Shown here: positions 1 to 60,159 of the stretch, one piece after another
How the letters are laid out: each line of letters opens with the position of its first letter
Position numbering within the stretch: the stretch's first letter is position 1
Assembly (NCBI GenBank): GCA_900549825.1
Contig: URQB01000003.1
Span: forward strand, 46,117-110,116
From: an uncultured Oscillospiraceae bacterium
GTDB lineage: Bacteria > Bacillota > Clostridia > Oscillospirales > Acutalibacteraceae
Direction of reading: 5' to 3'
DNA: 64,000 bases
Notes under the pieces: generated by a model
Databases searched by the model: none
Told to the model about the DNA's origin: nothing
What the model saw: the letters and a program-made list of their open reading frames with translations, nothing else
Translations under genes and position numbers: made by a program

Positions 1-269
1 GAGACCTTTCCGGAGATGGAAGCGTGAATCGGCGCACTGATGAATTTGTCGCTGTCCCCGATCACCTGCCCCACGGAGACCGGATCGCCCACCTTGACGA
101 CCGGCGTGCAGGGCGCGCCGATATGCTGCTGCATGGGCAGGATGACGCTCTCCGGGGAGGGCATGCGCACCGGCTCCATATCGGCCGTGTTTTTATTGTG
201 CGATACGCTCACGCCGCCGCGCGGCTTGCGCACCGCAGTGAGCACGCCCTTCATTTTTTCTGGTTTCAT
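1..269 (-). CDS. rnfC: Rnf electron-transport complex subunit C, N-terminal part (continues past window start)
   Basis: Reverse translation from the ATG at 269 gives MKPEKMKGVLTAVRKPRGGVSVSHNKNTADMEPVRMPSPESVILPMQQHIGAPCTPVVKVGDPVSVGQVIGDSDKFISAPIHASISGKV. This carries the QHIGAPC..VKVGD.V..GQ.I....SAPIH.S.SGKV pattern of the RnfC N-terminus. The frame stays open to position 1, so it is absent from the ORF track. It lies downstream of apbE. Confidence 0.75.
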   Translation of the reverse strand, partial: MKPEKMKGVLTAVRKPRGGVSVSHNKNTADMEPVRMPSPESVILPMQQHIGAPCTPVVKVGDPVSVGQVIGDSDKFISAPIHASISGKV

Positions 270-3330: not shown

Positions 3331-3407
3331 TGGCGCGCTGGAAGGGACTCGAACCCCCGACCTTTTGGTTCGTAGCCAAACACTCTATCCAGCTGAGCTA
3401 CCAGCGC
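3331..3407 (-). tRNA. tRNA-Arg (anticodon ACG)
   Basis: The reverse complement is GCGCTGGTAGCTCAGCTGGATAGAGTGTTTGGCTACGAACCAAAAGGTCGGGGGTTCGAGTCCCTTCCAGCGCGCCA. It has a 7-bp acceptor stem, a D-loop AGCTCAGCTGGATAGAGT, an anticodon loop CTACGAA, a T-loop TTCGAGT and an encoded CCA. Confidence 0.9.
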
Positions 3408-3452
3408 ACATGGAGCTTCTCAGCTCACATACAGCCTCTCGACTGCCAAAGT

Positions 3453-3481
3453 ATCATACCACATCCTTTTCAAAAATGCAA
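3453..3481 (-). promoter_or_regulatory. Sigma-70-type promoter for tRNA-Arg
   Basis: The minus strand reads TTGCAT-17 nt-TATGAT, about 40 nt upstream of the tRNA 5' end. Confidence 0.5.
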
Positions 3482-3541
3482 CTCCTAATTTTAAATTTTT
3501 GCGATATTTCTTTCCAGACCCCCTCATACCGCCAAAATCCG

Positions 3542-3570
3542 TTGACAGCGGTGGCGCGGTATACTATAAT
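3542..3570 (+). promoter_or_regulatory. Consensus sigma-70 promoter for purA (divergent from the tRNA promoter)
   Basis: TTGACA (3542-3547), a 17-nt spacer, then TATAAT (3565-3570). Confidence 0.6.
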
Positions 3571-3680
3571 GAATTGTATTTTTGGTCTGCAGGGCCGCAA
3601 TCCTTCGGAGGAGTGGCTTTGCGCTGAAGAAAGCCGCTTACCCAGCGCTTTCTTCCTATTTTTTTGGAGGTGCGTTTGAA

Positions 3681-4964
3681 TTGGTTAAAGCGATTGTCGG
3701 CGCAAACTGGGGCGACGAGGGCAAGGGGAAAATCACCGATCTGGTTGCCAGCGAATCGGATATCGTCATCCGCTTTCAGGGCGGCGCGAACGCGGGGCAC
3801 ACGATCATCAATGATTACGGCCGTTTTGCGCTGCATCTGCTTCCCTCCGGCGTATGCTACCAGCACACGATGAATATCATTGGCAACGGCGTGGCGCTCG
3901 ATATCCCGAAGCTGATTGCTGAAATCAAGTCCGTTACGGACAAGGGCGTCCCGGCGCCGCATATCATGGTGTCCGACCGGGCGCAGGTGATGATGCCGTA
4001 CCATGTGCTGCTCGACACCTATGAGGAAGAGCGGCTGGCGGACAGGCAATTCGGCTCCACCAAATCCGGCATTGCACCGTTTTATTCCGATAAATATGCA
4101 AAGATTGGCTTCCAGGTCAACGAATTGTTTGACGAGGAGTACTTAAAGGAAAAGCTCGCGCGCGTACTCGAGGTCAAGAACCTCATGCTCGAGCACATCT
4201 ATCACAAGCCGCTGCTGAATTTCGATGAGATTTTCAATACGCTCACGGAGTATCGCGAGATGGTCGCGCCCTATGTGGGCGACGTCAACGTCTATGTCCA
4301 CGAGGCGCTCAAGGCGGGCAAAAATATCCTGCTGGAGGGCCAGCTTGGCTCATTGAAGGACCCGGATTTCGGTATCTACCCGATGGTGACCTCCTCTTCG
4401 ACACTGGCGGGCTACGGCGCGGTCGGCGCGGGGATTCCGCCCTATGAGATCAAAGAGATCGTCGCGGTGACGAAATCATATTCCAGTGCGGTCGGCGCGG
4501 GCGAATTCGTTTCAGAAGTCTTCGGCGAAGAGGCCCAACTGATGCGCGATCACGGCGGCGACAAGGGCGAATACGGCGCAACCACGGGCCGGCCCCGCCG
4601 CATGGGCTGGTTCGACTGCGTGGCCACCCGCTACGGCTGCCGGGTACAGGGCGCAACGCAGGTGGTGCTCACGGCGCTCGATTGCCTGGCCTATCTCGAT
4701 GAGATCAAGGTCTGTACCGGCTATGAGATCGACGGCGTGGTGACGAAGGACTTCCCCGTGACCACAAAGCTGAAAAAAGCAAAGCCCGTGCTGGAGACGT
4801 TACCTGGCTTCAAGCAGGAGATCCGCGGCATCGAGCGGTTTGAAGATCTGCCCAAGGCCGCGCAGGATTATGTGGCGTTCATCGAGAAGGAGATCGGCGT
4901 GCCGGTCACGATGGTTTCCAATGGCCCGAAGCGCAGCGAAATCCTCAAGCGTAAATCAATTTGA
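3681..4964 (+). CDS. purA: Adenylosuccinate synthase
   Basis: ORF 3582..4964 trimmed to the TTG at 3681, preceded by GGAGGT. The product starts (M)VKAIVGANWGDEGKGKITD, the canonical PurA P-loop N-terminus, and is about 427 aa. Confidence 0.9.
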   Translation: MVKAIVGANWGDEGKGKITDLVASESDIVIRFQGGANAGHTIINDYGRFALHLLPSGVCYQHTMNIIGNGVALDIPKLIAEIKSVTDKGVPAPHIMVSDRAQVMMPYHVLLDTYEEERLADRQFGSTKSGIAPFYSDKYAKIGFQVNELFDEEYLKEKLARVLEVKNLMLEHIYHKPLLNFDEIFNTLTEYREMVAPYVGDVNVYVHEALKAGKNILLEGQLGSLKDPDFGIYPMVTSSSTLAGYGAVGAGIPPYEIKEIVAVTKSYSSAVGAGEFVSEVFGEEAQLMRDHGGDKGEYGATTGRPRRMGWFDCVATRYGCRVQGATQVVLTALDCLAYLDEIKVCTGYEIDGVVTKDFPVTTKLKKAKPVLETLPGFKQEIRGIERFEDLPKAAQDYVAFIEKEIGVPVTMVSNGPKRSEILKRKSI

Positions 4965-4994
4965 ATGTATCCTGAAATAAAAGGTGGTCCCCGC

Positions 4995-6530
4995 ATGTAT
5001 GAATCCATTCTGGTGCTCGATTTCGGCGGACAGTACAATCAGCTAATTGCACGCCGCGTCCGCGAGCAGAACGTTTACGCCGAAGTAAAGCCCTATACGA
5101 CCCCGCTTTCCGAAATCCGGGAGCGGCATTATAAGGGCATCATCTTTACCGGCGGGCCGAACAGCGTGTACGACCCGGCCTCTCCGCACTATGAGGAGGG
5201 TATTTTGTCGCTTGGCGTGCCGGTGCTCGGCATCTGCTATGGCGCGCAGCTCATCGCCTGGCTGGAGGGCGGGGAGATTGCCGCCGCGGAGAACGGGAGC
5301 GAATATGGTAAAGTGGAGGTGGAGGCCTGTGCGGATAGCCTCCTCTTCCGCGACGTGCCCGCGCGCAGCCAGTGCTGGATGAGCCATACGGACTATATTA
5401 AGACCCCGCCCGCGGGCTACCGGGTCTCCGCGCATACGGACGCTTGCTCGACGGCGGCGATGGAAAACGTGGAGAAGAAGATTTACGCCGTCCAGTTCCA
5501 CCCGGAGGTGACGCATACGGCCTTCGGCAAGCAGATGCTTCATAATTTCCTTTATGAAATCTGCGGCTGCAAGGGCGATTGGCGGATGAACGATTTTGTC
5601 GAGCGCTCCATCGAAAAATATCGCGAGGAGCTCAAGGGGAAAAGGGTGCTCTGCGCGCTCTCCGGCGGGGTGGATTCCTCTGTGGCCGCTGTGCTGCTGC
5701 ACAAGGCGATTGGGAAGAACCTGACCTGCGTTTTCGTCGATCACGGCTTGCTCCGCAAGGAGGAAGGCGACACGGTCGAGCGGGTGTTTCGCGAGCAGTT
5801 CGATATGAATCTGATCCGTGTCAACGCGGCCGATCGCTTCCTCTCAAAGCTTGCGGGCGTGGAGGAGCCGGAAGCAAAGCGCAAGATCATCGGCGAAGAA
5901 TTCATTCGCGTGTTTGAGGCGGAATCGAAAAAGCTCGGTAAGATGGATTATCTCGTACAGGGCACGATCTATCCGGATGTGATCGAGAGCGGCGTGGGCG
6001 ATGCGGCCGTTATCAAAAGCCACCACAATGTAGGGGGACTCCCGGAGGATGTGGATTTTCAGGGCATCATCGAGCCGCTGCGTGACCTATTTAAGGATGA
6101 GGTCCGTGCGGCGGGGTTGGAGCTTGGCATCCCGGCGAATCTTGTCTGGCGGCAGCCCTTCCCGGGGCCCGGCCTTGCGATCCGCATCATGGGCGAAATC
6201 ACGGAAGGGAAGCTTGCCATCCTGCGCGAGGCGGACGCGATCTTCCGCGAGGAGATCGTCCATGCAGGGCTCGAAAAGCAGGTCAATCAGTATTTTGCCG
6301 TGCTGACGAATGTGCGCAGCGTGGGTGTGATGGGCGACGCGCGGACGTACGACTATACTGTTGCCCTGCGTGCGGTGACGACGACCGACTTCATGACGGC
6401 GGAGTGGGCGCAGCTGCCGCTCGAACTGCTTGCGCGCGCGTCGAGCAGGATCACGAACGAGGTGCCGCATGTGAACCGCGTGGTTTATGATATTACGACG
6501 AAGCCGCCGGCGACGGTGGAGTGGGAATGA
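4995..6530 (+). CDS. guaA: GMP synthase (glutamine-hydrolysing), full length
   Basis: Start [24 protein letters not shown] after AAAGGTGG. GATase motifs GICYGAQ and FHPE are present, as are the PP-loop [17 protein letters not shown] and the C-terminal PPATVEWE. Confidence 0.92.
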
Positions 6531-6537
6531 ACATATC

Positions 6538-6581
6538 ATCCCGAAAATCCGGTATGATGCGGATTTTCGGGATTGTTTTTT
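6538..6581 (+). terminator. Intrinsic terminator of guaA
   Basis: atcccgaaaatccg and cggattttcgggat form a 14-bp stem, followed by tgtttttt. Confidence 0.7.
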
Positions 6582-6689
6582 CAGGATTCCTCCTCTGTGG
6601 TATGCGCATAAAAATTCCCCCGTTTGAAATCTGCGGTTTGATATCTGGAATCTGTTTTTGCGCTTAGACCACGCGGGTTATCTTTTTTC

Positions 6690-7335
6690 GCATTGTGTAT
6701 GTGTTTCGCTGACGCGCTTTCGTTCTCTTTGCTTGTGCAAAGAGAACGAAGCAAGAGAAAGCACAGGGGCATAGCCCCTTGACCCCATGTACGGCACTGC
6801 GGTAGCGGAAAGATGAAGCCACGATCGAACCCGTTCGGCGAAAAGGCTTCAAACTCACCGCCTCACGGCGGTTCAGGCATGAAGCCTTTTCGTTTCCCCG
6901 CTGCGCGAGGAAATCCCCTCACGAGCCACGCCCCCAGTTTGGCGCAATGCTGCCTTGGCCCATCATTACCTTGCTGCGGCGCAATGGATTACAGGTTACG
7001 AAGGGTGCAGAAACCTTGCGTTGCCCGCCGCTGACTGCGCGTTAAACAGCTTTCGGAAGGCCGAGGCAGCATATCGCTTCACCAACTGCGTGGCTCGTGA
7101 GGGGATTTTTTCACCGCGTCTCGTGCGGTGCAAAACGGGCGCACAAATTGTCTGAGCGCCGTGAGGCGGCGAGTTTTTGTGTGTCCCGCCGAACGGGTTG
7201 GATCGTGACGATCAGCTTCCCGCTGCCGAAGTGCCGTGCGAAACGGCCCCTTTTGCTTCCTTTTCCGGCCGAACGGAAAAGGGAGGGCCCGCGCGGCCTG
7301 AGCGCGCTCTTCCTGGTGAGCCACTTTCATTGTGT
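6690..7335. repeat. Two diverged copies of the interspersed repeat in opposite orientation (large imperfect palindrome)
   Basis: The right arm (about 7040-7335, +) carries cggaaggccgaggcagc..tgcgtggctcgtgaggggattt..ccgtgaggcggcgagttt..ccgccgaacgggttggatcgtg..ccgctgccgaagtgccgtgcgaaacggccccttttgcttccttttccggccgaacggaaaagggagg. The left arm (about 6690-7000) holds the same blocks in reverse complement, in the same order. Confidence 0.65.
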
Positions 7336-7477
7336 AAAATAATGTTAATTTTGATATGTTTATTTGAGTTGATATAATTTATTCCATAAAAATTTCAAAT
7401 AGCTTGGCATTGGGCTGCCCTTAGTTGTATACTTAGGGCGGCCCTTAATTGGAGGTGATCTTCTGGGCACAAAAAAG

Positions 7478-7639
7478 ATGGGGCGGCCAACGGATAATCC
7501 CAAACCCTATAAAATTGCTGTTAAACTTGATCAAGAAGCGAAAGATGTCTTAGATGCTTATTGCAAGCAAGAATCCGTTTCGATGATGGAAGCAGCACGG
7601 CGCGGGATCAAACGGTTGAAACCCGACCTCAAAAAATGA
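7478..7639 (+). CDS. Small ribbon-helix-helix-like protein (53 aa), hypothetical
   Basis: MGRPTDNPKPYKIAVKLDQEAKDVLDAYCKQESVSMMEAARRGIKRLKPDLKK has a beta-strand/helix/helix layout like CopG/RHH. GGAGGTGA lies at 7451-7458, and an alternative CTG start at 7463 fits the RBS spacing better. It falls below the ORF-track size cutoff. Confidence 0.5.
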   Translation: MGRPTDNPKPYKIAVKLDQEAKDVLDAYCKQESVSMMEAARRGIKRLKPDLKK

Positions 7640-7814
7640 AAGGAAGCGGCTCCAACTCGCGAAAGTATCAGCCACTTCCAGTACGGCAACCGCCTGAAAA
7701 GACAGTTACAGCGTAAATATTTTACCATAAAATCAGATGTTTGCAAATGATTTTATGGTATGCGCATGCGATTTCTTTCAAGCGTTGTACGATCATTTGA
7801 AAGGAACATGCTTC

Positions 7815-8141
7815 ATGCTTTATAACGACAGCCTGAATCTGATCGAGGAATTGTACTTCGGCAACATCTGCCCCCATGAAGAGAGCTTTGACAAACGCTC
7901 CCGCTACGCCGCTTTCCTCAAAACCATCTCTGTCAATGAGGAAAAGCTCAACGCCTATTTCAAAGCACATACCGGGGCTGAAGAGGAGGAGCATCTTTTT
8001 TCACAGCTCATCAACGCGCAGGGCGAAATCCGGCGCTTCAGCGAGCTTGACCGCTTTGTTGAGGGCTTCCAGCTCGGCGCAAGGCTGATGCTCGATACCT
8101 TCCTGCTCCCGCAGCAGAGCGTCATCCGGGATATTTACTGA
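7815..8141 (+). CDS. Hypothetical small helical protein (108 aa)
   Basis: ORF 7737..8141 trimmed to the ATG at 7815 after AAAGGA: MLYNDSLNLIEELYFGNICPHEESF... I cannot assign a family. A perfect 12-bp inverted repeat (accataaaatca/tgattttatggt, 7724-7759) lies just upstream. Confidence 0.5.
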   Translation: MLYNDSLNLIEELYFGNICPHEESFDKRSRYAAFLKTISVNEEKLNAYFKAHTGAEEEEHLFSQLINAQGEIRRFSELDRFVEGFQLGARLMLDTFLLPQQSVIRDIY

Positions 8142-8331
8142 GAAAATCCCCCTCTGAAACACTGGGATTTGTGGAAAACGAACGCTTTTCAGGAGAAATG
8201 ATCTGTGGTATACTAAATAAGATTTTTAGTCGAAATCGATTGGACATGCCCGGACATGCGACCGATGATCCGGCGGCACCGGAAATTGGCTTTTCCATCC
8301 GGGAGACTTTACAGCGAAAGGAACATCCCAT

Positions 8332-9315
8332 TTGAAAATCAGAATTGGTATTGCAGGATATGGTAATTTAGGCCGCGGCGTGGAGTGCGCCGTACAGAAC
8401 GCGCCCGATCTGGAGCTGGTTGCCCTGCTCACCAGGCGCGACCCCGCTTCCATTCAGACGCATACGGGCGTGCCCGTCTACCGCATGAGCGACGCTGCGA
8501 AGCTGCAGGATCAGATCGACGTGATGATCCTGTGCGGCGGCAGCGCGAACGATCTGCCGGAGCAGACGCCGGAGCTGGCGCGGTATTTCAACGTGGTGGA
8601 CAGCTTTGATACGCACGCAAAGATCCCGGAGCATTTCAGCCGGGTGGACGAGGCCAGCAAAAAGGCCAATAAAATCGGGGTCATCTCCGTGGGCTGGGAT
8701 CCGGGCATGTTCTCCCTTAACCGCGTGATCGCACAGGCGATCCTCCCCAACGGGCAGGATTACACCTTCTGGGGCAAGGGCGTCAGCCAGGGGCATTCCG
8801 ACGCTGTACGCCGCATCGAAGGGGTCAAGGATGCCCGGCAGTACACCATCCCGGTGGAATCCGCGCTCGAGCGGGTGCGCGGCGGCGAAAACCCAGTGCT
8901 GACCACGCGTGAGAAGCATACGCGTGAGTGCTTTGTGGTCGCAGAGGAGGGCGCGGACTGCGCAAAGATCGAAACGGCTATCAAAACCATGCCGAACTAC
9001 TTTGCGGATTACGATACCACTGTCCACTTCATCAGTGAGGAAGAGATGCGGAAAAACCACAGCGGCATCCCGCACGGCGGCAGGGTGTTCCGCTGCGGCG
9101 TGACCGGCTGGGAAAACGAGAATCGCCATATTATTGAATACAGCCTGAAGCTGGATTCCAACCCGGAGTTCACCTCCAGCATCCTCGCCGCTTATGCACG
9201 GGCTGCGTACCGTCTCTATCAGGAGGGCCAGACCGGCTGCAAGACGGTGCTGGATATCGCGCCCGCCTATCTGCATCCGGCGTCCCCGGACGAGCTGCGC
9301 GCGACGCTTCTATAA
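8332..9315 (+). CDS. ddh: meso-diaminopimelate D-dehydrogenase
   Basis: 327 aa with a TTG start. IGIAGYGNLGRGVE, SVGWDPGMFSLNRV, WGKGVSQGHSDAVRRI and HGG match Ddh as known from Corynebacterium along the whole length. Confidence 0.9.
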   Translation: MKIRIGIAGYGNLGRGVECAVQNAPDLELVALLTRRDPASIQTHTGVPVYRMSDAAKLQDQIDVMILCGGSANDLPEQTPELARYFNVVDSFDTHAKIPEHFSRVDEASKKANKIGVISVGWDPGMFSLNRVIAQAILPNGQDYTFWGKGVSQGHSDAVRRIEGVKDARQYTIPVESALERVRGGENPVLTTREKHTRECFVVAEEGADCAKIETAIKTMPNYFADYDTTVHFISEEEMRKNHSGIPHGGRVFRCGVTGWENENRHIIEYSLKLDSNPEFTSSILAAYARAAYRLYQEGQTGCKTVLDIAPAYLHPASPDELRATLL

Positions 9316-9378
9316 GCGGACAAGCCCCCGTTTTTACGCTGTTATTGATTTCGTTTCAAAGAAAGGTTGGTTGCCCGC

Positions 9379-10707
9379 ATGAAGCAGGACATGATCGTCA
9401 TTCTCGACCTCGGCTGTACAGAGAATACTGCCACCGCCCGCGCGATCCGCGCGCTGGGCGTATACAGTGAAATTTATCCCCACGACATCACACCCGCAGA
9501 GCTTGCCGCCCTGCCGAACGTCAGGGGCGTGATCTTAAACGGTGGGCCGAACCGCATTGTGGACGGCGTTTCCATCGACGCTGCGCCGGAAATCTACGAT
9601 TGCGGCCTGCCGGTACTGGCTGTCTGCCATCCCGCCGCTGCCGTACATACGGGCTGCGCCAAGGTTTCCATGCGCAATGAGCCCTGGCCGCAGGACGAGG
9701 ATGCTGCGAAAAAGGATTTGGAAGCTTTCGTCTTCGGCGAGTGCCATACGCAGGCGAACTGGAATATGGAGAACTTCATCGCCGACCAGATCGACCTTGT
9801 ACGCCGGCAGGTAGGGGAGAAAAAGGTGCTGCTCGCGCTCTCCGGCGGCGTGGATTCCTCCGTGGTTGCTGCGCTGCTGTTAAAGGCGATTGGCAATCAG
9901 CTCACCTGCGTGCATGTCAATCACGGCCTGCTGCGCAAGGGCGAGCCGGAGCAGGTGGTCGAGGTGTTTCGCAACCAGATGAACGCGAATCTCGTCTATG
10001 TGGATGCGAGCGAGCGTTTTCTCACCAAGCTTGCAGGCGTTGCCGATCCGGAGCAGAAGCGCAAGCTCATCGGCGCGGAATTCATCCGCGTGTTCGAGGA
10101 GGAGGCCCGCAAGCTCGCGGGCATCGACTTCCTTGCGCAGGGCACGATCTACCCCGATATCGTTGAGAGCGGCACGAAGACCGCCAAGATGGTCAAATCC
10201 CATCACAATGTGGGCGGGTTGCCGGAGGATCTCGCCTTCGAGCTCGTCGAGCCGCTTCGTCAGCTCTTCAAGGATGAGGTGCGCGCCTGCGGCGTAGCGC
10301 TGGGCCTGCCGGACAGTATGGTCTACCGCCAGCCCTTCCCGGGCCCCGGCCTCGGCGTGCGCTGCCTCGGCGCGATCACACGCGACCGGCTGGAGGCCGT
10401 GCGGGAATCGGACGCGATTTTGCGCGAGGAGTTCCACAACGCAGGCCTCGACAAAAAGGTCTGGCAGTATTTCACGGTCGTCCCCGATTTCAAATCCGTC
10501 GGTGTGCGCGACAATGCGCGCAGCTTTGAATACCCGGTCATCCTGCGCGCCATTAACACGGTGGACGCGATGACGGCGGGGATCGAGCGCATCGACTGGG
10601 AAGTGCTCGAGGCCATCACCTGGCGCATTTTGAGCGAGGTAAAGGGCGTCAACCGCGTCCTCTATGATATCTCACCCAAACCGCCGGCGACGATCGAGTG
10701 GGAATAA
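9379..10707 (+). CDS. GMP synthase paralog with truncated/degenerate glutaminase domain
   Basis: The synthetase half is intact ([24 protein letters not shown]-terminal PPATIEWE). The N-terminal ~120 aa align to the GATase domain, but FGGQY is LGCTE, GICYG is AVCHP, and the segment carrying FHPE is missing. Confidence 0.8.
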   Translation: MKQDMIVILDLGCTENTATARAIRALGVYSEIYPHDITPAELAALPNVRGVILNGGPNRIVDGVSIDAAPEIYDCGLPVLAVCHPAAAVHTGCAKVSMRNEPWPQDEDAAKKDLEAFVFGECHTQANWNMENFIADQIDLVRRQVGEKKVLLALSGGVDSSVVAALLLKAIGNQLTCVHVNHGLLRKGEPEQVVEVFRNQMNANLVYVDASERFLTKLAGVADPEQKRKLIGAEFIRVFEEEARKLAGIDFLAQGTIYPDIVESGTKTAKMVKSHHNVGGLPEDLAFELVEPLRQLFKDEVRACGVALGLPDSMVYRQPFPGPGLGVRCLGAITRDRLEAVRESDAILREEFHNAGLDKKVWQYFTVVPDFKSVGVRDNARSFEYPVILRAINTVDAMTAGIERIDWEVLEAITWRILSEVKGVNRVLYDISPKPPATIEWE

Positions 10708-10802
10708 AGCATTACTTACCCCGGAGAACTGCAAAGGTGCGGTCCCCCGGGGCCTTTTCCGTGATTTTTTGAGATTTGGATGGTAAGGGGAAATGGAGAA
10801 AC

Positions 10803-12287
10803 ATGCAGCGGATCGGTTTTGACAATGAGAAATATCTGAAAATGCAGTCGGCGCATATTCAGGAGCGGATCGCGCAGTTTGACAATAAGCTCTATCTCGA
10901 GCTGGGCGGGAAGCTGTTCGATGATTATCACGCCTCGCGCGTTTTGCCGGGCTTTAAGCCGGACAGCAAGATCAACATGCTTCTGAACTTGAAGGAGCAG
11001 GCGGAGATCGTAATCGTCATCAACGCCACCGATATCGAAAAGAGCAAGGTGCGCGGCGACCTCGGCATCACGTATGACGCAGACGTATTGCGCCTGATCG
11101 ACGCCTTCCGCGGCGTGGGGCTCTATGTTGGCAGCGTTGTCATCGCCCAGTATGCGGCGCAGCCGATGGCGGATAAATTCCGCAACCTGCTAGCAAAGCT
11201 CGGCGTGCCGGTCTATCTGCACTATCCAATCGAGGGCTATCCCAATAATATCCCCCTGATCGTCAGCGAAGAGGGCTTTGGGAAGAATGAGTATGTGGAG
11301 ACCAGCCGCCCGCTGGTCATCGTCACGGCACCCGGCCCCGGCAGCGGCAAGATGGCGACCTGTCTGTCGCAGCTCTATCACGAGCATCAGCGGGGCGTAA
11401 ACGCCGGATATGCCAAGTTTGAAACCTTCCCGGTCTGGAATCTTCCGCTGCGCCATCCCGTCAATCTAGCATATGAAGCCGCCACTGCGGATTTGAACGA
11501 CGTCAACATGATCGACCCCTACCACCTGGAGGCCTACGGCGAGACGACCGTCAATTATAACCGGGATATCGAGGTCTTCCCTGTGCTCAATGCGATTTTT
11601 GAGCGCATTGCCGGGGAGAGCCCCTATAAATCGCCCACGGATATGGGCGTCAATATGGCGGGCAACTGCATCATAGACGACGATGTTTGCCGCCATGCCT
11701 CCGAGCAGGAAATCATCCGCCGCTACTATCACGCCCGATGCGACCAAAAGCAGGGCCGTCTTGACGAAGCGGCCGTCTATAAGGTGGAGCTGCTGATGAA
11801 CCAGGCAGGCGTGTCTACCAAAGACCGCGCGGTCGCCGCGGCCGCTCTGGAGCGCGCGGAGGAGACGGGGCTTCCCGCCTCGGCGATCGAGCTGCCAGAT
11901 GGGCGTGTCATTACGGGAAAAACCTCTCCGCTGCTCGGCGCTTCCGCTGCTGTGCTGCTCAACGCATTGAAGGCGCTCGGCGGCATCCAGCACGATATCC
12001 TGCTGATTTCCCCGATCATTATTGAGCCGATTCAGAATTTAAAAACCAAGCATCTGGGAAATCATAACCCCAGGCTGCATTCCGATGAGGTACTCATCGC
12101 CCTGTGCATCAGCGCGGCGACGAACCCCACTGCCGAGCTCGCATTGAAACAGCTTGCAAAGCTCAAGGGCTGCGAAGCACACTCCTCCGTGATCCTCTCC
12201 CAGGTGGACGATTCCGTCTTCCGCAAGCTGGGGATGAACCTGACATGCGAAGCGCGGTACCAAAGCCAGAAGCTCTATCACAAATGA
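10803..12287 (+). CDS. DUF1846 (UPF0371) family protein
   Basis: Start [23 protein letters not shown]...[10 protein letters not shown] after GGAGA. About 494 aa, the characteristic length and N-terminus of the family. Confidence 0.8.
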
Positions 12288-55428: not shown

Positions 55429-55659
55429 ATGTATCAACGGATACGCGATTTACGCGAAGATCAAGATTTATCTCAAAAAGATATTGCTGCTTATCTACAT
55501 ATTCACCAGACGACGTACTCAGATTATGAGTTGGGGGAATTAAATATTTCAATTCCCATGTTGATTAAACTGGCGGAATTTTACAACACGAGTGTAGACT
55601 ACCTTTTGGATTTAACGGATGAACGCAGGCCATATCCTAGAAAAAAACAAAAACTTTAA
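55429..55659 (+). CDS. XRE-family HTH protein (76 aa)
   Basis: MYQRIRDLREDQDLSQKDIAAYLHIHQTTYSDYELGELNISIPMLIKLAEFYNTSVDYLLDLTD, preceded by AAGGAG. Confidence 0.75.
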   Translation: MYQRIRDLREDQDLSQKDIAAYLHIHQTTYSDYELGELNISIPMLIKLAEFYNTSVDYLLDLTDERRPYPRKKQKL

Positions 55660-55781
55660 AACGATACGGATTATAGACGAAAATGGTATTTTTCATGATT
55701 CGGATAGCAGGATATTACCGAACAATGCGGACTATCGATCAAGTTTTATAATCAAAATATGTATTCTTTAAATTTAATAAA

Positions 55782-55799
55782 TTACTATAACTATAGTAA
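55782..55799. promoter_or_regulatory. Palindromic operator-like site upstream of the XRE gene at 55877
   Basis: TTACTATAACTATAGTAA is a perfect 8+8 palindrome. A TTGTCA-17-TATTAT promoter lies about 20 nt downstream. Confidence 0.4.
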
Positions 55800-55876
55800 C
55801 TATTATTGAGTGAATTGTCAAGCATTTCTAATAAGATTATTATATAAGTATTGTTTAGGGAAGGAGATAAAATCTT

Positions 55877-56170
55877 ATGGATCAGAAGCGTTCCACTCCA
55901 GAAGATTCTCTCGTTGCCTTAAAAGACCACGGCAGAATTGAGGTTCGGCTCAAAGAAATCCTGGATTCCCGCGGCATGAAGCGGAATACGCTGGCCAGAG
56001 CAATTGGCTGCCGGTTTGAAGTGGTCAACCGGTGGTGCCAAAATGAATTGCAGGAAATCGATACGGACACGCTTGCCAAACTTTGCTGCTATTTTCACTG
56101 TTCCGTCGGGGATATCCTGCAATTTTGTGAACCCGAAAGGGAGTTCACCACATCCGATCCTGAAAAATAA
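55877..56170 (+). CDS. XRE-family HTH protein (97 aa)
   Basis: ...VRLKEILDSRGMKRNTLARAIGCRFEVVNRWCQNELQEIDTDTLAKLCCYFHCSVGDILQF, preceded by GGAAGGAG. Confidence 0.65.
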   Translation: MDQKRSTPEDSLVALKDHGRIEVRLKEILDSRGMKRNTLARAIGCRFEVVNRWCQNELQEIDTDTLAKLCCYFHCSVGDILQFCEPEREFTTSDPEK

Positions 56171-56183
56171 ACAGGGGCTATTG

Positions 56184-56643
56184 TCAAAATTCTTGCTTCC
56201 CCCGACCATGCGTCAGGGGATTTTTCATTCGCCCCGGCCAAATGACCGGAACGCCCTTTTGCCGCGCATAATTCACCGTATATGCCGTGCCGCCTTGACC
56301 GCTCGAGCAGGCAGCTTCGCGTGTAACGCTCGGCGAGATATATCACCTCATCCGCCTGCCATTTGATGGATTCATAGAGCAGCCTGTCCGCTTCCCGCCA
56401 ATGCTCCGCCTGATCGGGGCAGGGGAGGGCCAGAATCAGCTTCACCCGAGGATGGAACCGCCGCGCTTTCAAAACGGCCTGCGCCGCGAGCGTGTCAAAG
56501 CCCAGCGCTCCGCCGCAATAAAAGGCGGTTATGTCACGGTGGAGCAGTGCCTTTACAGTTTGGTGAAGGCGCTTTTGCACGGTGGATCGTTCGGCTTCTG
56601 GAATTTTTCGATGGCCGGTGAAACAACAGGATGATCCATACAT
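56184..56643 (-). pseudogene. Second DUF1273/SLOG copy, disrupted by an internal deletion and frameshift
   Basis: It starts MYGSSCCFTGHRKIPE...AFYCGGALGFDTLAAQAVLKARRFHPRVKLILALPC...ERYTRSC. About 50 nt present in the copy at 54950-55000 are then missing. The conserved C-terminus GQGGTAYTVNYARQKGVPVI continues in another frame. Confidence 0.7.
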
Positions 56644-56693
56644 TTTTTCTCCTTTTCGTAATATAAAGAATATTTTTTTAAAAATCTGCCAAC

Positions 56694-56711
56694 TTAACTC
56701 AAATGAGTTAA
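56694..56711. promoter_or_regulatory. Palindromic operator-like site upstream of the XRE gene at 56774
   Basis: TTAACTCAAATGAGTTAA is a perfect inverted repeat. An extra half-site GTTAACTCAT lies at 56741-56750. Confidence 0.45.
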
Positions 56712-56773
56712 CCTTTTGCAAAATAATAAGCTAACCTAAAGTTAACTCATTTTAGTATAGGAGATCATAAAAA

Positions 56774-57016
56774 ATGCGTATTGGTGAAGCTGTTAAAAAA
56801 CGGATCATAGCTCTTTGTGAAGAAAATAAAATTACGGTCAACATGCTGGCGACAATCAGTGGAGTTCCGCAATCGACACTTAATAATATTGTAAGTGAAA
56901 GGAATCGTGGTACTACAGTTTCTACTCTCCAAAAGCTTTGTGATGGATTAAATATTTCTATCATTGACTTTTTTAATGTCGAAATCTTTAAAAATATCGA
57001 TCAAGAGATCAAATAG
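56774..57016 (+). CDS. XRE-family HTH protein (80 aa)
   Basis: MRIGEAVKKRIIALCEENKITVNMLATISGVPQSTLNNIVSERNRGTTVSTLQKLCDGLNISIIDFF, preceded by TAGGAG. Confidence 0.75.
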   Translation: MRIGEAVKKRIIALCEENKITVNMLATISGVPQSTLNNIVSERNRGTTVSTLQKLCDGLNISIIDFFNVEIFKNIDQEIK

Positions 57017-57105
57017 CTGTCTTTTCAATCACATTATAGTCTATTTTACGACCATGGTCAAGTATTTAATCATAAAAGATAATTAGTATGAGGAGGATTA
57101 TCAAT

Positions 57106-57324
57106 ATGATTATTTACGATCGATTTTGGCAAACACTAAAGAAGCGTCATGTTAGCACCTATTCCCTTATAAACGACTATCATATTAGCAGTAGTACACT
57201 AGATCGATTGAGAAAAAACCTTCCACTTACTACCGTAACATTAAATGATCTTTGTCGCATTTTAAATTGTGAATTACAAGATATTGCCGAATACATTCCC
57301 TCAGATACAGATCAAAGGCTATAA
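57106..57324 (+). CDS. Small HTH (XRE-like) protein (72 aa)
   Basis: ORF 57088 trimmed to the ATG at 57106 after GAGGAGGA: MIIYDRFWQTLKKRHVSTYSLINDYHISSSTLDRLRKNLPLTTVTLNDLCRILNCELQDIAEY. Confidence 0.65.
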   Translation: MIIYDRFWQTLKKRHVSTYSLINDYHISSSTLDRLRKNLPLTTVTLNDLCRILNCELQDIAEYIPSDTDQRL

Positions 57325-57540
57325 TATTCGTTATGTATCATTTTAACGCTTTCATTACGATAAAAAATAGGTTCATGCCATGTCATTAAAAATGACCACT
57401 CGTACTCGTTGATAAAAGTATCTTAACAGTTTTTTGCTTGTATTTTAGGGCAAAATTGACCTATTAAAATTTCAAGTCCCCGGTCAAGCATTGAATTCTT
57501 GACCGGGGACAGCTTACCAATTTATATTGTGCTACTTGTA

Positions 57541-57569
57541 TTGACAAACAGCTTTCTTCACGTTAAAAT
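57541..57569 (+). promoter_or_regulatory. Promoter of small RNA 1
   Basis: TTGACA (57541-57546), 17 nt, then TAAAAT (57564-57569). Confidence 0.6.
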
Positions 57570-57575
57570 ATAAAT

Positions 57576-57664
57576 GAACGATGGCACTACCCTTTTCGGC
57601 GGTTAGCGTCCCAATTTGCTCAGACTAGCTGCAACATTGGAACTGGGGCAGCTAGTCTTTTTTT
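57576..57664 (+). ncRNA. Candidate ~89-nt antisense RNA 1 (putative type I antitoxin)
   Basis: Predicted start is about 7 nt after the -10 element. It ends in the stem agactagctgc/gcagctagtct (57622-57632 / 57649-57659) followed by seven T (57658-57664). No ORF. Its 3' part is antisense to the peptide ORF stop region. Confidence 0.5.
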
Positions 57665-57717
57665 ATTGCGAGCACGAGCAACAAAATCAAAGTGAAAATA
57701 ATGATTATGTACTCCAT
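57652..57717 (-). CDS. 21-aa hydrophobic peptide MEYIIIIFTLILLLVLAIKKD (putative type I toxin), copy 1
   Basis: ATG at 57717, with GGAGGTGA 5 nt upstream. The TAG stop at 57652-57654 lies inside the shared terminator hairpin. The second copy encodes an identical peptide and differs only by synonymous changes. Confidence 0.6.
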   Translation of the reverse strand: MEYIIIIFTLILLLVLAIKKD

Positions 57718-57816
57718 GCGCCTCACCTCCCTCCCGCGCAAAACAATGCGCAAGGAGAAAGGACGCTAACTGCCTACCGCTGAGGTAGTGCCACCGGTGG
57801 CATTTGCCACGTGTCA

Positions 57817-57845
57817 ATTATATATTGTGAATCCTTATCAGTCAA
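57817..57845 (-). promoter_or_regulatory. Promoter of peptide mRNA 1
   Basis: The minus strand reads TTGACT (57845-57840), 17 nt, then TATAAT (57822-57817). Confidence 0.6.
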
Positions 57846-57864
57846 TATTTAACAGACAATTCCC

Positions 57865-57912
57865 GCAAAAAAATCGAAGCCTGACGAATTTACGATTTGG
57901 CCTCGATTTTTC
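57865..57912. terminator. Bidirectional hairpin between the two modules
   Basis: aaatcgaagcc/ggcctcgattt (one mismatch) is flanked by an A-run on one side and a T-run on the other. On the minus strand it is followed by tttttttgcggg, so it can terminate peptide mRNA 2. Confidence 0.5.
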
Positions 57913-57924
57913 ATCTGACAGGTA

Positions 57925-57953
57925 TTGACAAACGGTTTGCCACACGCTACAAT
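57925..57953 (+). promoter_or_regulatory. Promoter of small RNA 2
   Basis: TTGACA (57925-57930), 17 nt, then TACAAT (57948-57953). Confidence 0.6.
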
Positions 57954-57959
57954 ATAGAT

Positions 57960-58049
57960 GAACGATGGCACTACCCGTTTCGGCGGTTAGCGTCCTCCAA
58001 CGATTAGACTAGCTGATCCATTGGGAAACGGGGCAGCTAGTCTTTTTTT
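57960..58049 (+). ncRNA. Candidate ~90-nt antisense RNA 2 (putative type I antitoxin)
   Basis: It has the same 5' sequence gaacgatggcactaccc(g/t)tttcggcggttagcgtcc as RNA 1. The stem agactagctg/cagctagtct (58006-58015 / 58034-58043) is followed by seven T. Confidence 0.5.
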
Positions 58050-58102
58050 ATCGCGAGCACGAGCAGCAAAATCAAAGTAAAAATAATGATTATGTACTCC
58101 AT
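58037..58102 (-). CDS. 21-aa hydrophobic peptide MEYIIIIFTLILLLVLAIKKD (putative type I toxin), copy 2
   Basis: Same SD and ATG context as copy 1. Three nucleotide differences from copy 1, all synonymous (TTT/TTC Phe, CTG/TTG Leu, GCG/GCA Ala). Confidence 0.6.
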   Translation of the reverse strand: MEYIIIIFTLILLLVLAIKKD

Positions 58103-58201
58103 TCGCCTCACCTCCCTCCCGCGCGAAACAACACGCAAGAAGCGAGGACGCTAACTGCCTACCGCTGAGGTAGTGCCATCGGTGGCGTTTGCCACGTGTC
58201 A

Positions 58202-58230
58202 ATTATATATTGAGAATCCTTATCAGTCAA
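58202..58230 (-). promoter_or_regulatory. Promoter of peptide mRNA 2
   Basis: The minus strand reads TTGACT (58230-58225), 17 nt, then TATAAT (58207-58202). Confidence 0.6.
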
Positions 58231-58278
58231 TATTTTACAATCTGTTTTTTCATCCATAACAGTCCAAATGAAAATAGG

Positions 58279-58316
58279 CAAAAACGGCCGCTGCGGGAAA
58301 GCAACGGCCGTTTTTA
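58279..58316. terminator. Bidirectional terminator at the end of the hydrogenase cluster
   Basis: aaaaacggccg ... cggccgttttt, located downstream of the minus-strand ferredoxin gene. Confidence 0.55.
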
Positions 58317-58332
58317 TTACTGTCGTGTTTTT

Positions 58333-58602
58333 TTACGCCTTGCCGGCGCCTGCCCGAAGGCTCTGCAAAACCTGCTGCTCAAAAAACGCGTCCGTCTCCG
58401 CCGGCAGGAGGGATTGCACCGGGCCGTCGTCCACACTGACGGATACGCCGTCCTGCCCGCAGTTCCCCATGCAGAATTTGGCGCGCACCTCTACGCGCTC
58501 GCCCAATTCCTGCTTTGCAATCAGAGCTTGCAGGCGGTTAATAATATCATAAGACCCTTTCAGATGGCAGGCGCTGCCGATGCAGACATAGATCGTAGTC
58601 AT
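58333..58602 (-). CDS. Thioredoxin-like [2Fe-2S] ferredoxin domain protein
   Basis: ORF trimmed to MTTIYVCIGSACHLKGSYDII...RAKFCMGNCGQDGVSVSVDD after AAAGGA. Cys pattern C-x3-C ... C-x3-C. Confidence 0.75.
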   Translation of the reverse strand: MTTIYVCIGSACHLKGSYDIINRLQALIAKQELGERVEVRAKFCMGNCGQDGVSVSVDDGPVQSLLPAETDAFFEQQVLQSLRAGAGKA

Positions 58603-58716
58603 CTGTAAACTCATCCTTTCACAGGCCAAAGCCTTTTGGAATCCGCAATTCGGAAAAAACCGTCCTATTTATTCTATTATAGCGTGTCTGATTTTGATGT
58701 CAATTCCCAAACCGGA

Positions 58717-60159
58717 TTATTCAAAATCATAAACACTGATCGCATCTGTCATGGTTTTCTCCTTGGCGAGCTGCCCGTATTTGTCCACGTCGAGCTTATT
58801 CTTCGGCCCGTGCGTCAGGCAGGCAGCGCCGCCGATGCAGCCCGATTCGCATGCCATACCCTCGATAAAGTTTTCCTGCAAAACGCCCTTGGAGGCTTTG
58901 AGCAGGGCGGTGCGGCATTCGCGGATGCCGTCGCAGGAGACAGGCTTGTAGCTGAAGTCCCCCAGCCCATACAGGCCCTGCTCCTTGAGCGCCTGCTCAA
59001 CCGCGCTCGCAAGGCCGCCGCTGCGGGCGAAAATACGGCCGTAATAGGAGGCGTTGTTGAGATGCTCGTCGGGCAGGGAGGCAATGTCAATATCGCGCGC
59101 ATCAAACAGCGCCTGCAGCTCCTCAAAGGTGATCACGCAGTCGATATAGGGGCTGACCGTTTCCCACTTCTGCTCCATCTTTTTGGCGATACAGGGGCCG
59201 ACGAAAACAATCTTGCAGCCCGGATCGAGGCGCTTGATATGCTTTGCGATCTGCGCCATAGGGGAGAGGTTGTGCGAGACGTGCTGCGCAAGGTTTGGGA
59301 AAGCCTTGCGGACATAGGTGACAAAGGCCGGGCAGCAGGAGCTGGTTAAAAAGCCCTTTTCATACAGCTCGTTTGCCTCCTGATAGGCCACCATATCCGC
59401 ACCGAGCGCCGCCTCGACCACGCTGAAAAAGCCGAGATGCTTGAGCCCCGACACCACCTGCTCCACGCGCACCTGCACAAACTGGCTCACAATAGAGGGG
59501 GCGACGACCGCATAGACATTGTATTTTGAATTGTTTTCAGACTCCTTCAGGAGTTTGATGGCTTCGAGAATATAGGATTTATCGGCGATCGCGCCGAACG
59601 GACATTTATACACGCACGCGCCGCAGGAGATGCATTTTTCGTTATCAATCTTTGCCTTTTTATCCTCGCCCATATGGATGGCGTTGATATGGCACGCACT
59701 TTCGCACGGGCGCACGCACTGGATGATCGCGTTATAGGGGCAGGCGTTAAGGCATTTCCCGCATTCCACGCATTTGGACTGGTCGATGACAGAGCGGTGG
59801 TTGACAATGCTGATTGCGCCCTTTGGGCAGACGTCGACACATTGATGGGAGATGCAGCCGCGGCAGGCCTCGGATACGCGCATGCCTTCGACCGGGCACT
59901 CGTCGCAGGCGATGTCAAGCACCTCGACGACGTTGGGGTTCTCCCTGTTGCCGCCCATGGCGAGCTTGATGCGCTCCCCAATGATGGCACGCTCCTTATA
60001 GATGCAGCAGCGCATTGTCGGCTTGGGGCCGGGCATGATTTTTGCGGGGATGTCCAGAAGCGCGCCGCTGTCGAGCCGGTCCTCAAAGGCAAGGCGGGCG
60101 ACCTCGCGCAGGACCTTATATTTGAGCTTCTGTACCGCGGTGTCAAATAGTTTTTTCAT
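58717..60159 (-). CDS. [FeFe] hydrogenase catalytic protein with N-terminal multi-[4Fe-4S] region (group B-like)
   Basis: H-cluster motifs are FLTSSCCPAF, VFVGPCIAKKME and FIEGMACESGCIGGAACL. Ferredoxin-type motifs CVECGKCLNACP and CISCGACVYKCP are present. 480 aa. Confidence 0.8.
   Translation of the reverse strand: MKKLFDTAVQKLKYKVLREVARLAFEDRLDSGALLDIPAKIMPGPKPTMRCCIYKERAIIGERIKLAMGGNRENPNVVEVLDIACDECPVEGMRVSEACRGCISHQCVDVCPKGAISIVNHRSVIDQSKCVECGKCLNACPYNAIIQCVRPCESACHINAIHMGEDKKAKIDNEKCISCGACVYKCPFGAIADKSYILEAIKLLKESENNSKYNVYAVVAPSIVSQFVQVRVEQVVSGLKHLGFFSVVEAALGADMVAYQEANELYEKGFLTSSCCPAFVTYVRKAFPNLAQHVSHNLSPMAQIAKHIKRLDPGCKIVFVGPCIAKKMEQKWETVSPYIDCVITFEELQALFDARDIDIASLPDEHLNNASYYGRIFARSGGLASAVEQALKEQGLYGLGDFSYKPVSCDGIRECRTALLKASKGVLQENFIEGMACESGCIGGAACLTHGPKNKLDVDKYGQLAKEKTMTDAISVYDFE

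Follow-up and report, generated by a model that had tools for sequence, protein, structure and literature searches.

Tandem cassettes encoding a 21-residue hydrophobic peptide opposite a predicted antisense RNA: a probable new family of type I toxin-antitoxin-like loci in gut Oscillospiraceae

The stretch of DNA analysed here, 64,000 nucleotides (nt) of contig URQB01000003.1 from an uncultured Oscillospiraceae bacterium and called the window below, contains two closely similar modules in tandem. Each carries a very short open reading frame (ORF) on the minus strand and, converging on it, a promoter and terminator hairpin on the plus strand which together delimit a predicted small RNA (sRNA). 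Repeat comparison gave 93% identity between 57639-57854 and 58024-58239 and 81% identity between 57538-57640 and 57922-58024. The initial annotation of this DNA had described two modules of ~305 bp as candidate type I toxin-antitoxin (TA) loci. All of its elements were found where it had placed them, but the unit is larger: the modules are spaced by 385/384 bp and form a ~385-bp tandem repeat which includes a terminator in the spacer. Its four convergent promoters were borne out, each agreeing with the consensus at 11 of 12 positions, and the 1.8-kb module region as a whole contains 16 promoter-like sites compared with 3.9 ± 2.0 in shuffled sequences. Within the window, the motif GGCGGTTAGCGTCC, which belongs to the arms of the long helix described below, is confined to the two modules.

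Both modules encode the 21-amino-acid (aa) peptide MEYIIIIFTLILLLVLAIKKD on the minus strand, with a Shine-Dalgarno (SD) sequence, GGAGGTGA, 5 nt before the ATG. The 22-codon ORF ends at a TAG inside the stem (AGACTAGCTGC...GCAGCTAGTCT) of a hairpin shared by the two strands. As reported initially, the two copies of the ORF differ at 3 nt (TTC/TTT, TTG/CTG and GCA/GCG) and all three differences are synonymous. A second minus-strand frame of 65/71 aa overlaps the ORF; it was rejected as a conserved frame because it shows many non-synonymous differences between the window copies. Searches with the peptide gave no family in Pfam at E up to 1, no family in NCBIfam at E up to 10 (neither a BsrG-like nor an Fst-type match) and no match among the PADLOC defence-system models at E up to 10. 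None of six peptide or ORF variants was present in an exact look-up against ~15 billion predicted proteins, and a literature search for 'MEYIII' found no paper. The peptide had initially not been recognised as a member of a named toxin family, and this agrees with the outcome for these libraries and for Rfam, for which the scan is given below.

Relatives were collected from genome and metagenome sequences. The spurious out-of-frame 65-aa ORF served as the query for a metagenome protein search and returned five proteins, all on contigs of <1.7 kb. These five contigs proved to be tandem arrays of the module, with up to four full copies and the start of a fifth, and every module copy on them has the intact 21-aa ORF. 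A genome scan with the pattern GGAGG-N6-10-MEYIII gave at least 117 stretches which were mostly chance matches (e.g. in Lysinibacillus) and from which the true relatives were filtered afterwards. A metagenome scan gave 53 more contigs, of which many carry the label human gut metagenome. The scans of the collections required MEYIII and some of them also A-I-K-K. The collected family amounts to at least 119 ORF instances and 25 distinct peptides, with 116 of the 119 having a length of 20-22 aa. The family peptide consists of a hydrophobic core of 16-17 residues and a K-rich end. A peptide from Bacillales, MEYIIILALLSILAAIIKGLSR (L036 and L047), was treated as unrelated since the cassette architecture is absent.

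Since the scans had required MEYIII, the integrity of the ORF was assessed on copies ascertained again from the non-coding leader and the 3' untranslated region (3'UTR) alone. The ORF was intact in 72 of 74 such copies and the core was without stop codon or frameshift in all 74. The two exceptions differ by an indel of 1 nt within the A-run at the end; their tails are longer and the hydrophobic core is unaffected. Relatives that keep the RNA elements around a broken ORF, which the initial annotation had named as evidence that would speak against it, were thus not encountered among these copies. Terminal A-run indels of 1 nt, with read-through tails of 30-32 aa, were seen in L099, L134 and L166; these copies may be decaying, or the indels may be errors of assembly in a homopolymer. 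In a set of 22 unique close units, the diversity between pairs was 0.104, 0.040 and 0.205 at codon positions 1, 2 and 3 respectively, and the replacements in the peptide exchange one hydrophobic residue for another throughout. Judged by this comparison of copies, the ORF shows coding-type constraint, and the suggestion that the peptide itself is under selection stood.

On the plus strand, the predicted sRNA of ~90 nt ends in an 11-bp terminator stem followed by T7, much as first proposed. In the fully flanked copies of the family, a consensus antisense promoter is found at +150..210 from the ATG in 90 of 92 cases, and a GGAGG-type SD lies 8-10 nt 5' of the ATG in 92 of 92. A 15-codon ATG ORF within the sRNA was discarded; it is without an SD and its residues differ between the copies (F to V; PICS to LQRL). 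When 56500-59000 was compared with Rfam at E up to 10, only noise was returned, the best score over the modules coming from a plant miRNA model at 27.7 bits compared with a gathering score of 211. The hairpin loop and the linker, which had been picked out at the start as far more variable than the ORF, have diversities of 0.417 and 0.496 among the 22 close units, about twice that of third codon positions (0.24), though alignment ambiguity near indels may contribute to the excess; the stems have 0.02-0.035. The two hypervariable segments correspond to the middle of the sRNA and to the loop of its terminator, and, by analogy with Sib/Ibs, their diversification may give each member of an array its own recognition sequence. 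In nearly every copy, including the window loops at 57633-57647 and 58016-58033, the loop contains UUGG or UUGA, which reads CCAA on the peptide strand. This resembles the YUNR motifs through which antisense RNAs make fast initial contact, and its information content is low.

On the peptide strand, GAGCAAAUU or AAUCGUUGG comes after the shared hairpin of the window modules. Lacking a U-tract, this hairpin does not qualify as a canonical terminator of the peptide mRNA. Probable terminators on this strand lie further downstream, one for each module (Table 1), and the one in the spacer is also kept in the arrays of relatives. Because a U-tract is missing after the hairpin and proper terminators follow further on, the peptide mRNA of the window subfamily probably crosses the whole of the sRNA gene, in which case the sRNA would be antisense to its 3'UTR. 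The hairpin in the spacer is flanked by an A-run and a T-run, one on either side, and so could act as a terminator for both strands and shield adjacent modules from each other. The lack of a peptide-strand U-tract in the window and the pairing of the first ~35 nt or so of the mRNA with its 3'UTR are both points that go beyond the initial annotation.

This pairing involves ~35 nt directly after the 5'-terminal stem-loop of the mRNA, which are complementary to ~34 nt ending exactly at the predicted start of the sRNA (inverted repeats I3 and I9). Folding of the whole RNA, from the start of the mRNA as far as the terminator, gave a structure closed by the long helix, with z = -8.6 for module 1 and z = -8.2 for module 2. 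It was present in the minimum free energy (MFE) structure of 10 of 10 units, with 23-32 bp, and of 20 of 20 peptide-type representatives, despite the divergence of the arms among subfamilies. The duplexes of the arms had z = -6 to -10, and 0 of 500 shuffles equalled them. Covariation was examined over the inner 13 bp of the helix in 16 representatives with a mean column identity of 60%. Paired cells made up 92.8% compared with 81.5% after shuffling, and cells with double-sided changes numbered 31 compared with 10.9, neither value being reached in any of 500 shuffles. The double-sided changes fall at 7 of the 13 pairs. Sliding the helix by 1-3 columns, as a control, reduced pairing to 27-52%. 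The helix contains 27 G.U cells and 6 A.C or C.A cells, and this wobble bias favours formation of the helix in the RNA of the peptide strand. The small 5'-terminal stem-loop also shows a compensatory change, U-A to C-G, between copies (GUGGC..GCCAC vs GCGGU..GCCGC).

The behaviour of the helix and the ORF bears on whether the repeat itself, as RNA or DNA, is the functional entity and the ORF incidental, as in a structured-RNA repeat or an element resembling a miniature inverted-repeat transposable element (MITE) with the arms as its ~35-bp terminal inverted repeats. An internal 35-bp inverted repeat in a multicopy, assembly-breaking sequence is what such an element would show. Nevertheless this explanation is very improbable given that the length, start and hydrophobic core of the ORF are kept where the UTRs can no longer be aligned, that variation is greatest at codon position 3 and least at position 2, and that 0 of 74 copies has a stop or frameshift in the core, while the alternative 65/71-aa frame collects non-synonymous changes between the window copies. 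Furthermore, the copies are found as head-to-tail arrays at a fixed site and not as dispersed insertions, and the wobble pairs in the helix indicate selection on RNA rather than on DNA.

The leader of the mRNA contains a second structure. Pairing of CCUUUCUCC with GGAGGGAGG, which the initial annotation had proposed as a means of sequestering the SD, was recovered by folding and covaries; the resulting anti-SD hairpin is part of the RNAalifold consensus with CG<->UA and GC<->AU changes. It adjoins the long helix and covers the GGAGG in every subfamily, with a different sequence in each. The anti-SD hairpins of L132, L137, L148, L150 and L113 are closed by GNRA tetraloops (GAAA, GCAA, GUAA, GAGA) and have GGGGG or GGAGG as the SD; closures of this type further support the view that the helix which sequesters the SD is an RNA structure under selection. 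With the long helix formed, the SD was predicted to be unpaired with a probability of up to 0.68, compared with at most 0.2, usually <=0.03, when the 3'UTR was blocked or truncated. The drop on blocking the 3'UTR was seen in 14 of 16 units and arises from competition between the final pairs of the long helix and a lengthened anti-SD helix.

These structures suggest an explanation for the locus which we regard as likely, if well short of certain, namely that each ~385-bp unit is a type I TA-like cassette with regulation in the style of bsrG/SR4 and with the peptide as a toxin candidate. The modules are probably a new, unannotated family of type I TA systems without sequence homology to bsrG/SR4. 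We propose an mRNA of about 235-340 nt, starting at the near-consensus promoter on the minus strand. It would begin with the 5'-terminal stem-loop, the ~35-nt 5' arm, the anti-SD hairpin over the GGAGG and the 21-codon ORF, which encodes a membrane peptide with a single helix, and would continue through the stop-codon hairpin into the 3'UTR, the last ~34 nt of which would pair to the 5' arm. The convergent promoter would give the ~90-nt sRNA, with its start exactly at the end of the helix and its stop at the shared hairpin and U7. Such an sRNA would be fully complementary to the 3'UTR of the mRNA, and its first ~35 nt would be a copy of the mRNA 5' arm. Contact might begin between the complementary hypervariable hairpin loops, after which the sRNA would zipper along the 3'UTR and push off the 5' arm. 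The freed arm would allow the anti-SD helix to grow across the SD and translation would be blocked; the long duplex would probably also make the mRNA open to attack by RNase III and to decay that depends on its 5' end. When the sRNA is lacking, the peptide would be made and inserted in the membrane.

A type I TA system could also be built with an mRNA that ends at the shared hairpin, this being bidirectional. The overlap would then be ~40 nt, recognition would be by loop-loop kissing at the stop-codon hairpin, and the inverted repeat, which gives the two RNAs identical 5' ends, would serve for instance as a common 5' stabiliser, a protein-binding site or an antiterminator. Several subfamilies (L016, L079, L017 and L113) do have U-runs after the hairpin on the peptide strand as well, and a simple finder located a terminator past the sRNA start in 10 of 20 peptide types, the other half being without a clear one. 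In addition, the core of the 5' arm, G(G/A)C(G/A)GUUA, is complementary both to the 3' arm and to the 5' half of the stop-codon hairpin in 10 of 10 units and at least six subfamilies. However, the window subfamily has no U-tract on the peptide strand and has a dedicated terminator just past the sRNA promoter. The covariation of the arms and the G.U bias on the peptide strand make sense only if both arms are in one transcript, and in bsrG there is an experimentally proven equivalent of the long-helix design. An mRNA ending at the shared hairpin is for these reasons quite unlikely.

The dual complementarity of the 5' arm can be traced in the window as 57761-57797 against 57648-57658 and as 58146-58182 against 58034-58043, and was seen also in L079, L016, L113 and L132. 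In the MFE structure of the nascent RNA the 5' arm pairs with the half hairpin through 11-20 pairs, with individual z = -1.5 to -3.7 in 10 units. In the window type, an A of the 5' arm is mismatched to the 3' arm and matched to the half hairpin. That the 5' arm acts as an antiterminator, enabling read-through on the peptide strand, is a minority possibility.

Besides the rival termination site, a number of observations count against bsrG/SR4-style regulation of a toxin. Given the peptide-strand U-runs and the detection of a downstream terminator in half of the peptide types, read-through into the 3' arm is an assumption. Comparing duplex energies of the helix on the sense and antisense strands, a cruder measure than the wobble counts, gave 30 vs 27. 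In all of the predicted states the SD is mostly base-paired. The last codons of the ORF, ATA AAA AAR, are the complement of the U-tract of the sRNA terminator, so that the AIKK tail is constrained twice and its conservation is not clean evidence for selection on the peptide. The verified type I toxins of Gram-positive bacteria are, to our knowledge, all longer than 20-21 aa. Finally, the census of peptides is biased because the scans required MEYIII and some of them A-I-K-K as well, and many of the copies are near-identical strain variants rather than independent examples.

The resemblance to bsrG/SR4 can be followed in some detail. In the bsrG mRNA, nt 1-35 are paired with nt 232-262 in helix P1, and binding of SR4 to the 3' part of bsrG melts P1, leaves nt 1-33 single-stranded and lengthens the helix at the SD from 4 to 8 bp; the initial contact is made via the terminator loop of SR4 (PMC3834814). 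The cassettes described here likewise have convergent genes, with a predicted antitoxin RNA that would base-pair with the 3' portion of the mRNA for the toxin candidate. In the predicted fold, ~35 nt at the 5' end of this mRNA are joined to 3' nucleotides in a long closing helix, equivalent to P1, which encloses the SD hairpin and the ORF, and the SD is in a short helix beside it. Binding of the sRNA, which covers the 3' arm, is predicted to free the 5' strand and lengthen the SD helix in the same manner. BsrG has 38 aa, compared with 20-21 aa for the present peptide. The two systems have no sequence similarity in peptide or RNA. SR4 has 183 nt whereas the predicted sRNA has ~90 nt, is without a non-complementary 5' stem-loop and begins precisely where the long helix stops. 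The tandem arrays, the hypervariable loop and linker, and the gut Oscillospiraceae hosts are further differences.

The initial annotation had compared the modules with several systems, among them both bsrG/SR4 and Fst/RNAII. The long helix supports the former analogy and the latter did not hold. Fst/RNAII (par of pAD1) and SprA1/SprA1as share with the modules convergent transcription, a common terminator hairpin and a small hydrophobic peptide, but they act through complementarity at the translation initiation region, outside the overlap. The complementarity in par derives from direct repeats. Since the repeats here are inverted, unlike those of par, the sRNA and the mRNA share sequence in this region rather than being complementary. 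Duplexes between the sRNA 5' domain and the leader or translation initiation region were no better than those of shuffles (z = -1.9 to +1.0, 16 of 16 representatives) and a par/Fst- or SprA1-like mode was rejected on this basis. TxpA/RatA, BsrE/SR5 and YonT/SR6, which are Gram-positive type I TA systems with a 3' overlap, have the same order of a hydrophobic stretch and a charged tail; in these the overlap extends into the ORF, whereas here it takes in just the last ~4 codons and the stop, and no homology was detected. Ibs/Sib and Ldr/Rdl of E. coli resemble the cassettes in having a very short hydrophobic toxin (here a candidate one) in tandem multicopy cassettes. Ibs has 18-19 aa, and both systems have variable segments within conserved repeats which could discriminate cognate pairs. 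They differ in belonging to another phylum, in showing no homology and in the position of the antitoxin, with Sib spanning the whole ORF and Rdl lying 5' of it. In hok/Sok and AapA1/IsoA1 the full-length mRNA is also locked by a long-distance 5'-3' interaction with a buried SD, but the antitoxin targets the 5' region and the mRNA is activated by 3' processing, whereas here the antitoxin would target the 3' arm. The type I TA systems of Clostridioides difficile prophages and CRISPR loci (CD0956.2/RCd10 etc.) have toxins of 34-47 aa; these too are convergent unannotated small ORFs from Clostridia, with a hydrophobic N-terminal part, a lysine-rich tail, an AGGAGG-type SD and a link to prophages, and the multicopy and mobile setting of the present family is similar to theirs (PMC7699646). 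The peptide of 20-21 aa shows no similarity to them via the family libraries and, unlike them, most copies of the window type are chromosomal.

Table 1. Positions in the window of the elements of the two modules, with the basis on which each was assigned (strand "." = both or none).
Feature	Position	Strand	Basis
Module 1 peptide-mRNA promoter, TTGACT-17-TATAAT	57817-57845	-	consensus match; position kept in relatives
Module 1 mRNA 5'-terminal stem-loop, GUGGCAAAUGCCAC	57797-57810	-	predicted by folding
Module 1 long-distance helix, 5' arm, CCGGUGGCACUACC...GGCAGUUAGCGUCC	57761-57797	-	MFE pairing with 57579-57612; covariation
Module 1 anti-SD hairpin with SD, CCUUUCUCC ... GGGAGGGAGGUGA	57723-57762	-	folding and RNAalifold consensus
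Module 1 ORF, 21 aa MEYIIIIFTLILLLVLAIKKD and stop	57652-57717	-	translation; kept in relatives
Module 1 shared hairpin, predicted terminator of plus-strand sRNA with T-run to 57664; contains minus-strand ORF stop	57622-57658	.	sequence, fold
Module 1 shared hairpin parts	stems 57622-57632 and 57648-57658; hypervariable loop 57633-57647
Module 1 hypervariable linker	57613-57621	.	pairwise diversity 0.496
Module 1 long-distance helix, 3' arm (sRNA 5' domain on plus strand)	57579-57612	-	fold, covariation
Module 1 predicted antisense sRNA, ~90 nt, without conserved ORF	57576-57664	+	promoter, terminator fold
Module 1 sRNA promoter, TTGACA-17-TAAAAT	57541-57569	+	consensus match
Module 1 probable peptide-mRNA terminator, 17-bp-arm hairpin then UUGAAAUUUUAAU	57476-57510	-	inverted repeat I2; fold
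Module 2 peptide-mRNA promoter, TTGACT-17-TATAAT	58202-58230	-	consensus match
Module 2 mRNA 5'-terminal stem-loop	58182-58195	-	sequence, fold
Module 2 long-distance helix, 5' arm	58146-58182	-	inverted repeat I3; fold z = -8.2
Module 2 anti-SD hairpin with SD	58108-58147	-	folding, RNAalifold consensus
Module 2 ORF, identical 21-aa peptide	58037-58102	-	translation
Module 2 shared hairpin, plus-strand T-run to 58049	58006-58043	.	inverted repeat I4; fold
Module 2 hypervariable linker	57997-58005	.	repeat alignment, diversity
Module 2 long-distance helix, 3' arm (plus-strand sRNA 5' domain)	57963-57996	-	inverted repeat, fold
Module 2 predicted antisense sRNA	57960-58049	+	sequence, promoter
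Module 2 sRNA promoter, TTGACA-17-TACAAT	57925-57953	+	consensus match
Inter-module spacer hairpin and U7, probable module 2 peptide-mRNA terminator	57867-57911	-	fold; kept in array spacers of relatives

Close relatives of the window modules are found in Candidatus Fimivicinus sp., where three contigs of one metagenome-assembled genome (MAG) carry them (L041, L102 and L124, i.e. several loci per genome), and in the uncultured Ruminococcaceae UMGS705 and Ruminococcaceae UBA1691. Candidatus Fimivicinus (Oscillospiraceae) is the closest named genome among the matches listed. More divergent members are those of Anaerotruncus massiliensis AT3 (L079, at about 445.8 kb of NZ_LT962687), MEYIIIFAMLMLFIIVAIKK, of an Acutalibacteraceae MAG, MEYIIIVLVIILYTVIAIKN, and of several further MAGs. 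The same layout is present in divergent subfamilies whose UTRs cannot be aligned (e.g. L079, L016, L017, L113 and L132). A further peptide, MEYIIIILIIVLYSIIAIKKK, is carried by two IMG/VR viral contigs. In one of these, L132, the member sits within 3387-11435 and has on one side a gene for a large polyvalent protein (2078 aa, LPD38 domain) and on the other one for a protein with a Gp10 baseplate C-terminal domain; phage-like elements thus carry at least one subfamily. Searching the phage and plasmid collections with one module by blastn gave no match. The peptides gave none by tblastn against the same collections, for which the low-complexity filter is probably responsible, and a first viral scan that required MEYIIIIFT was also negative. 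The family is common and multicopy in human-gut Oscillospiraceae.

Most copies of the window type are chromosomal and at a syntenic site. The flanks of the window array, on the [FeFe]-hydrogenase side and on the PadR/YpsA side, are syntenic with many contigs at 87-94% identity, and the number of modules between these flanks varies among strains from 1 to at least 4. Cassette contigs are often very short and end within a module (L001-L014 and many of L134-L186). Tandem arrays break short-read metagenome assemblies, so the copy numbers in MAGs are probably underestimates. Directly to the right of the array, 58333-60159 on the minus strand encodes a thioredoxin-like [2Fe-2S] ferredoxin and, in 480 aa, an [FeFe]-hydrogenase-type protein that contains several 4Fe-4S domains, in a flank that is syntenic in many gut contigs. 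Just to the left, 55500-57500 is a low-GC island (GC 0.32-0.37 compared with about 0.55 around it) with three small Cro/C1-type helix-turn-helix (HTH) ORFs at 55877-56170, 56774-57016 and 57088-57324, all on the plus strand, and a YpsA/SLOG-family ORF at 56095-56721 on the minus strand. The island may be the remnant of a mobile or defence island.

The position of the window array, at a conserved chromosomal site adjoining hydrogenase genes, would suit a peptide that is not a toxin at all but a small membrane protein, a regulator or accessory subunit of a membrane complex, with its level tuned by a cis-antisense RNA. The ORF, the SD, the antisense promoter and the RNA structures would fit any antisense-regulated small protein equally well. 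However, tandem amplification with changes of copy number between strains is typical of type I TA systems and not of housekeeping microproteins, and the same can be said of the occurrence of several loci per genome and on viral contigs and of a locked mRNA with a buried SD. Moreover, no conserved partner gene was found, the gene neighbours differing among subfamilies. A non-toxic role is therefore considered unlikely, and a type I TA-like cassette is preferred.

The preferred cassette could be part of a more elaborate device, to which we give a small chance. Four segments, namely both arms of the long helix and both halves of the stop-codon hairpin, would form an RNA switch. The 5' arm would initially be paired to the hairpin's 5' half as an antiterminator, letting the toxin strand read through a hairpin at which the antisense strand terminates, and would then move to the 3' arm, locking the mRNA. 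Owing to the hypervariable loop and linker, each member of an array would be an orthogonal toxin/antitoxin pair. The arrays in gut Oscillospiraceae would then be diversified sets serving locus stabilisation, phage defence or abortive infection.

The family uses a known regulatory design and not a new mechanism. If the bsrG/SR4-style interpretation is correct, this design, with its 5'-3' lock, an antitoxin competing for the 3' strand and closure of the SD, recurs in an unrelated family. Experimental proof of it has so far come from one Bacillus system, and to this the cassettes add natural covariation across subfamilies. The predicted toxin of 20-21 aa would be among the shortest proposed and escapes gene callers. 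The hypervariable loop and linker provide a natural set of possibly orthogonal RNA pairs. The cassettes fragment assemblies and vary in copy number between strains, and so may serve as strain markers. No described type I system for Oscillospiraceae was found in the literature; if true, the present interpretation adds a type I TA family to the gut members of this group, in Fimivicinus-like, Anaerotruncus and Acutalibacteraceae-like genomes.

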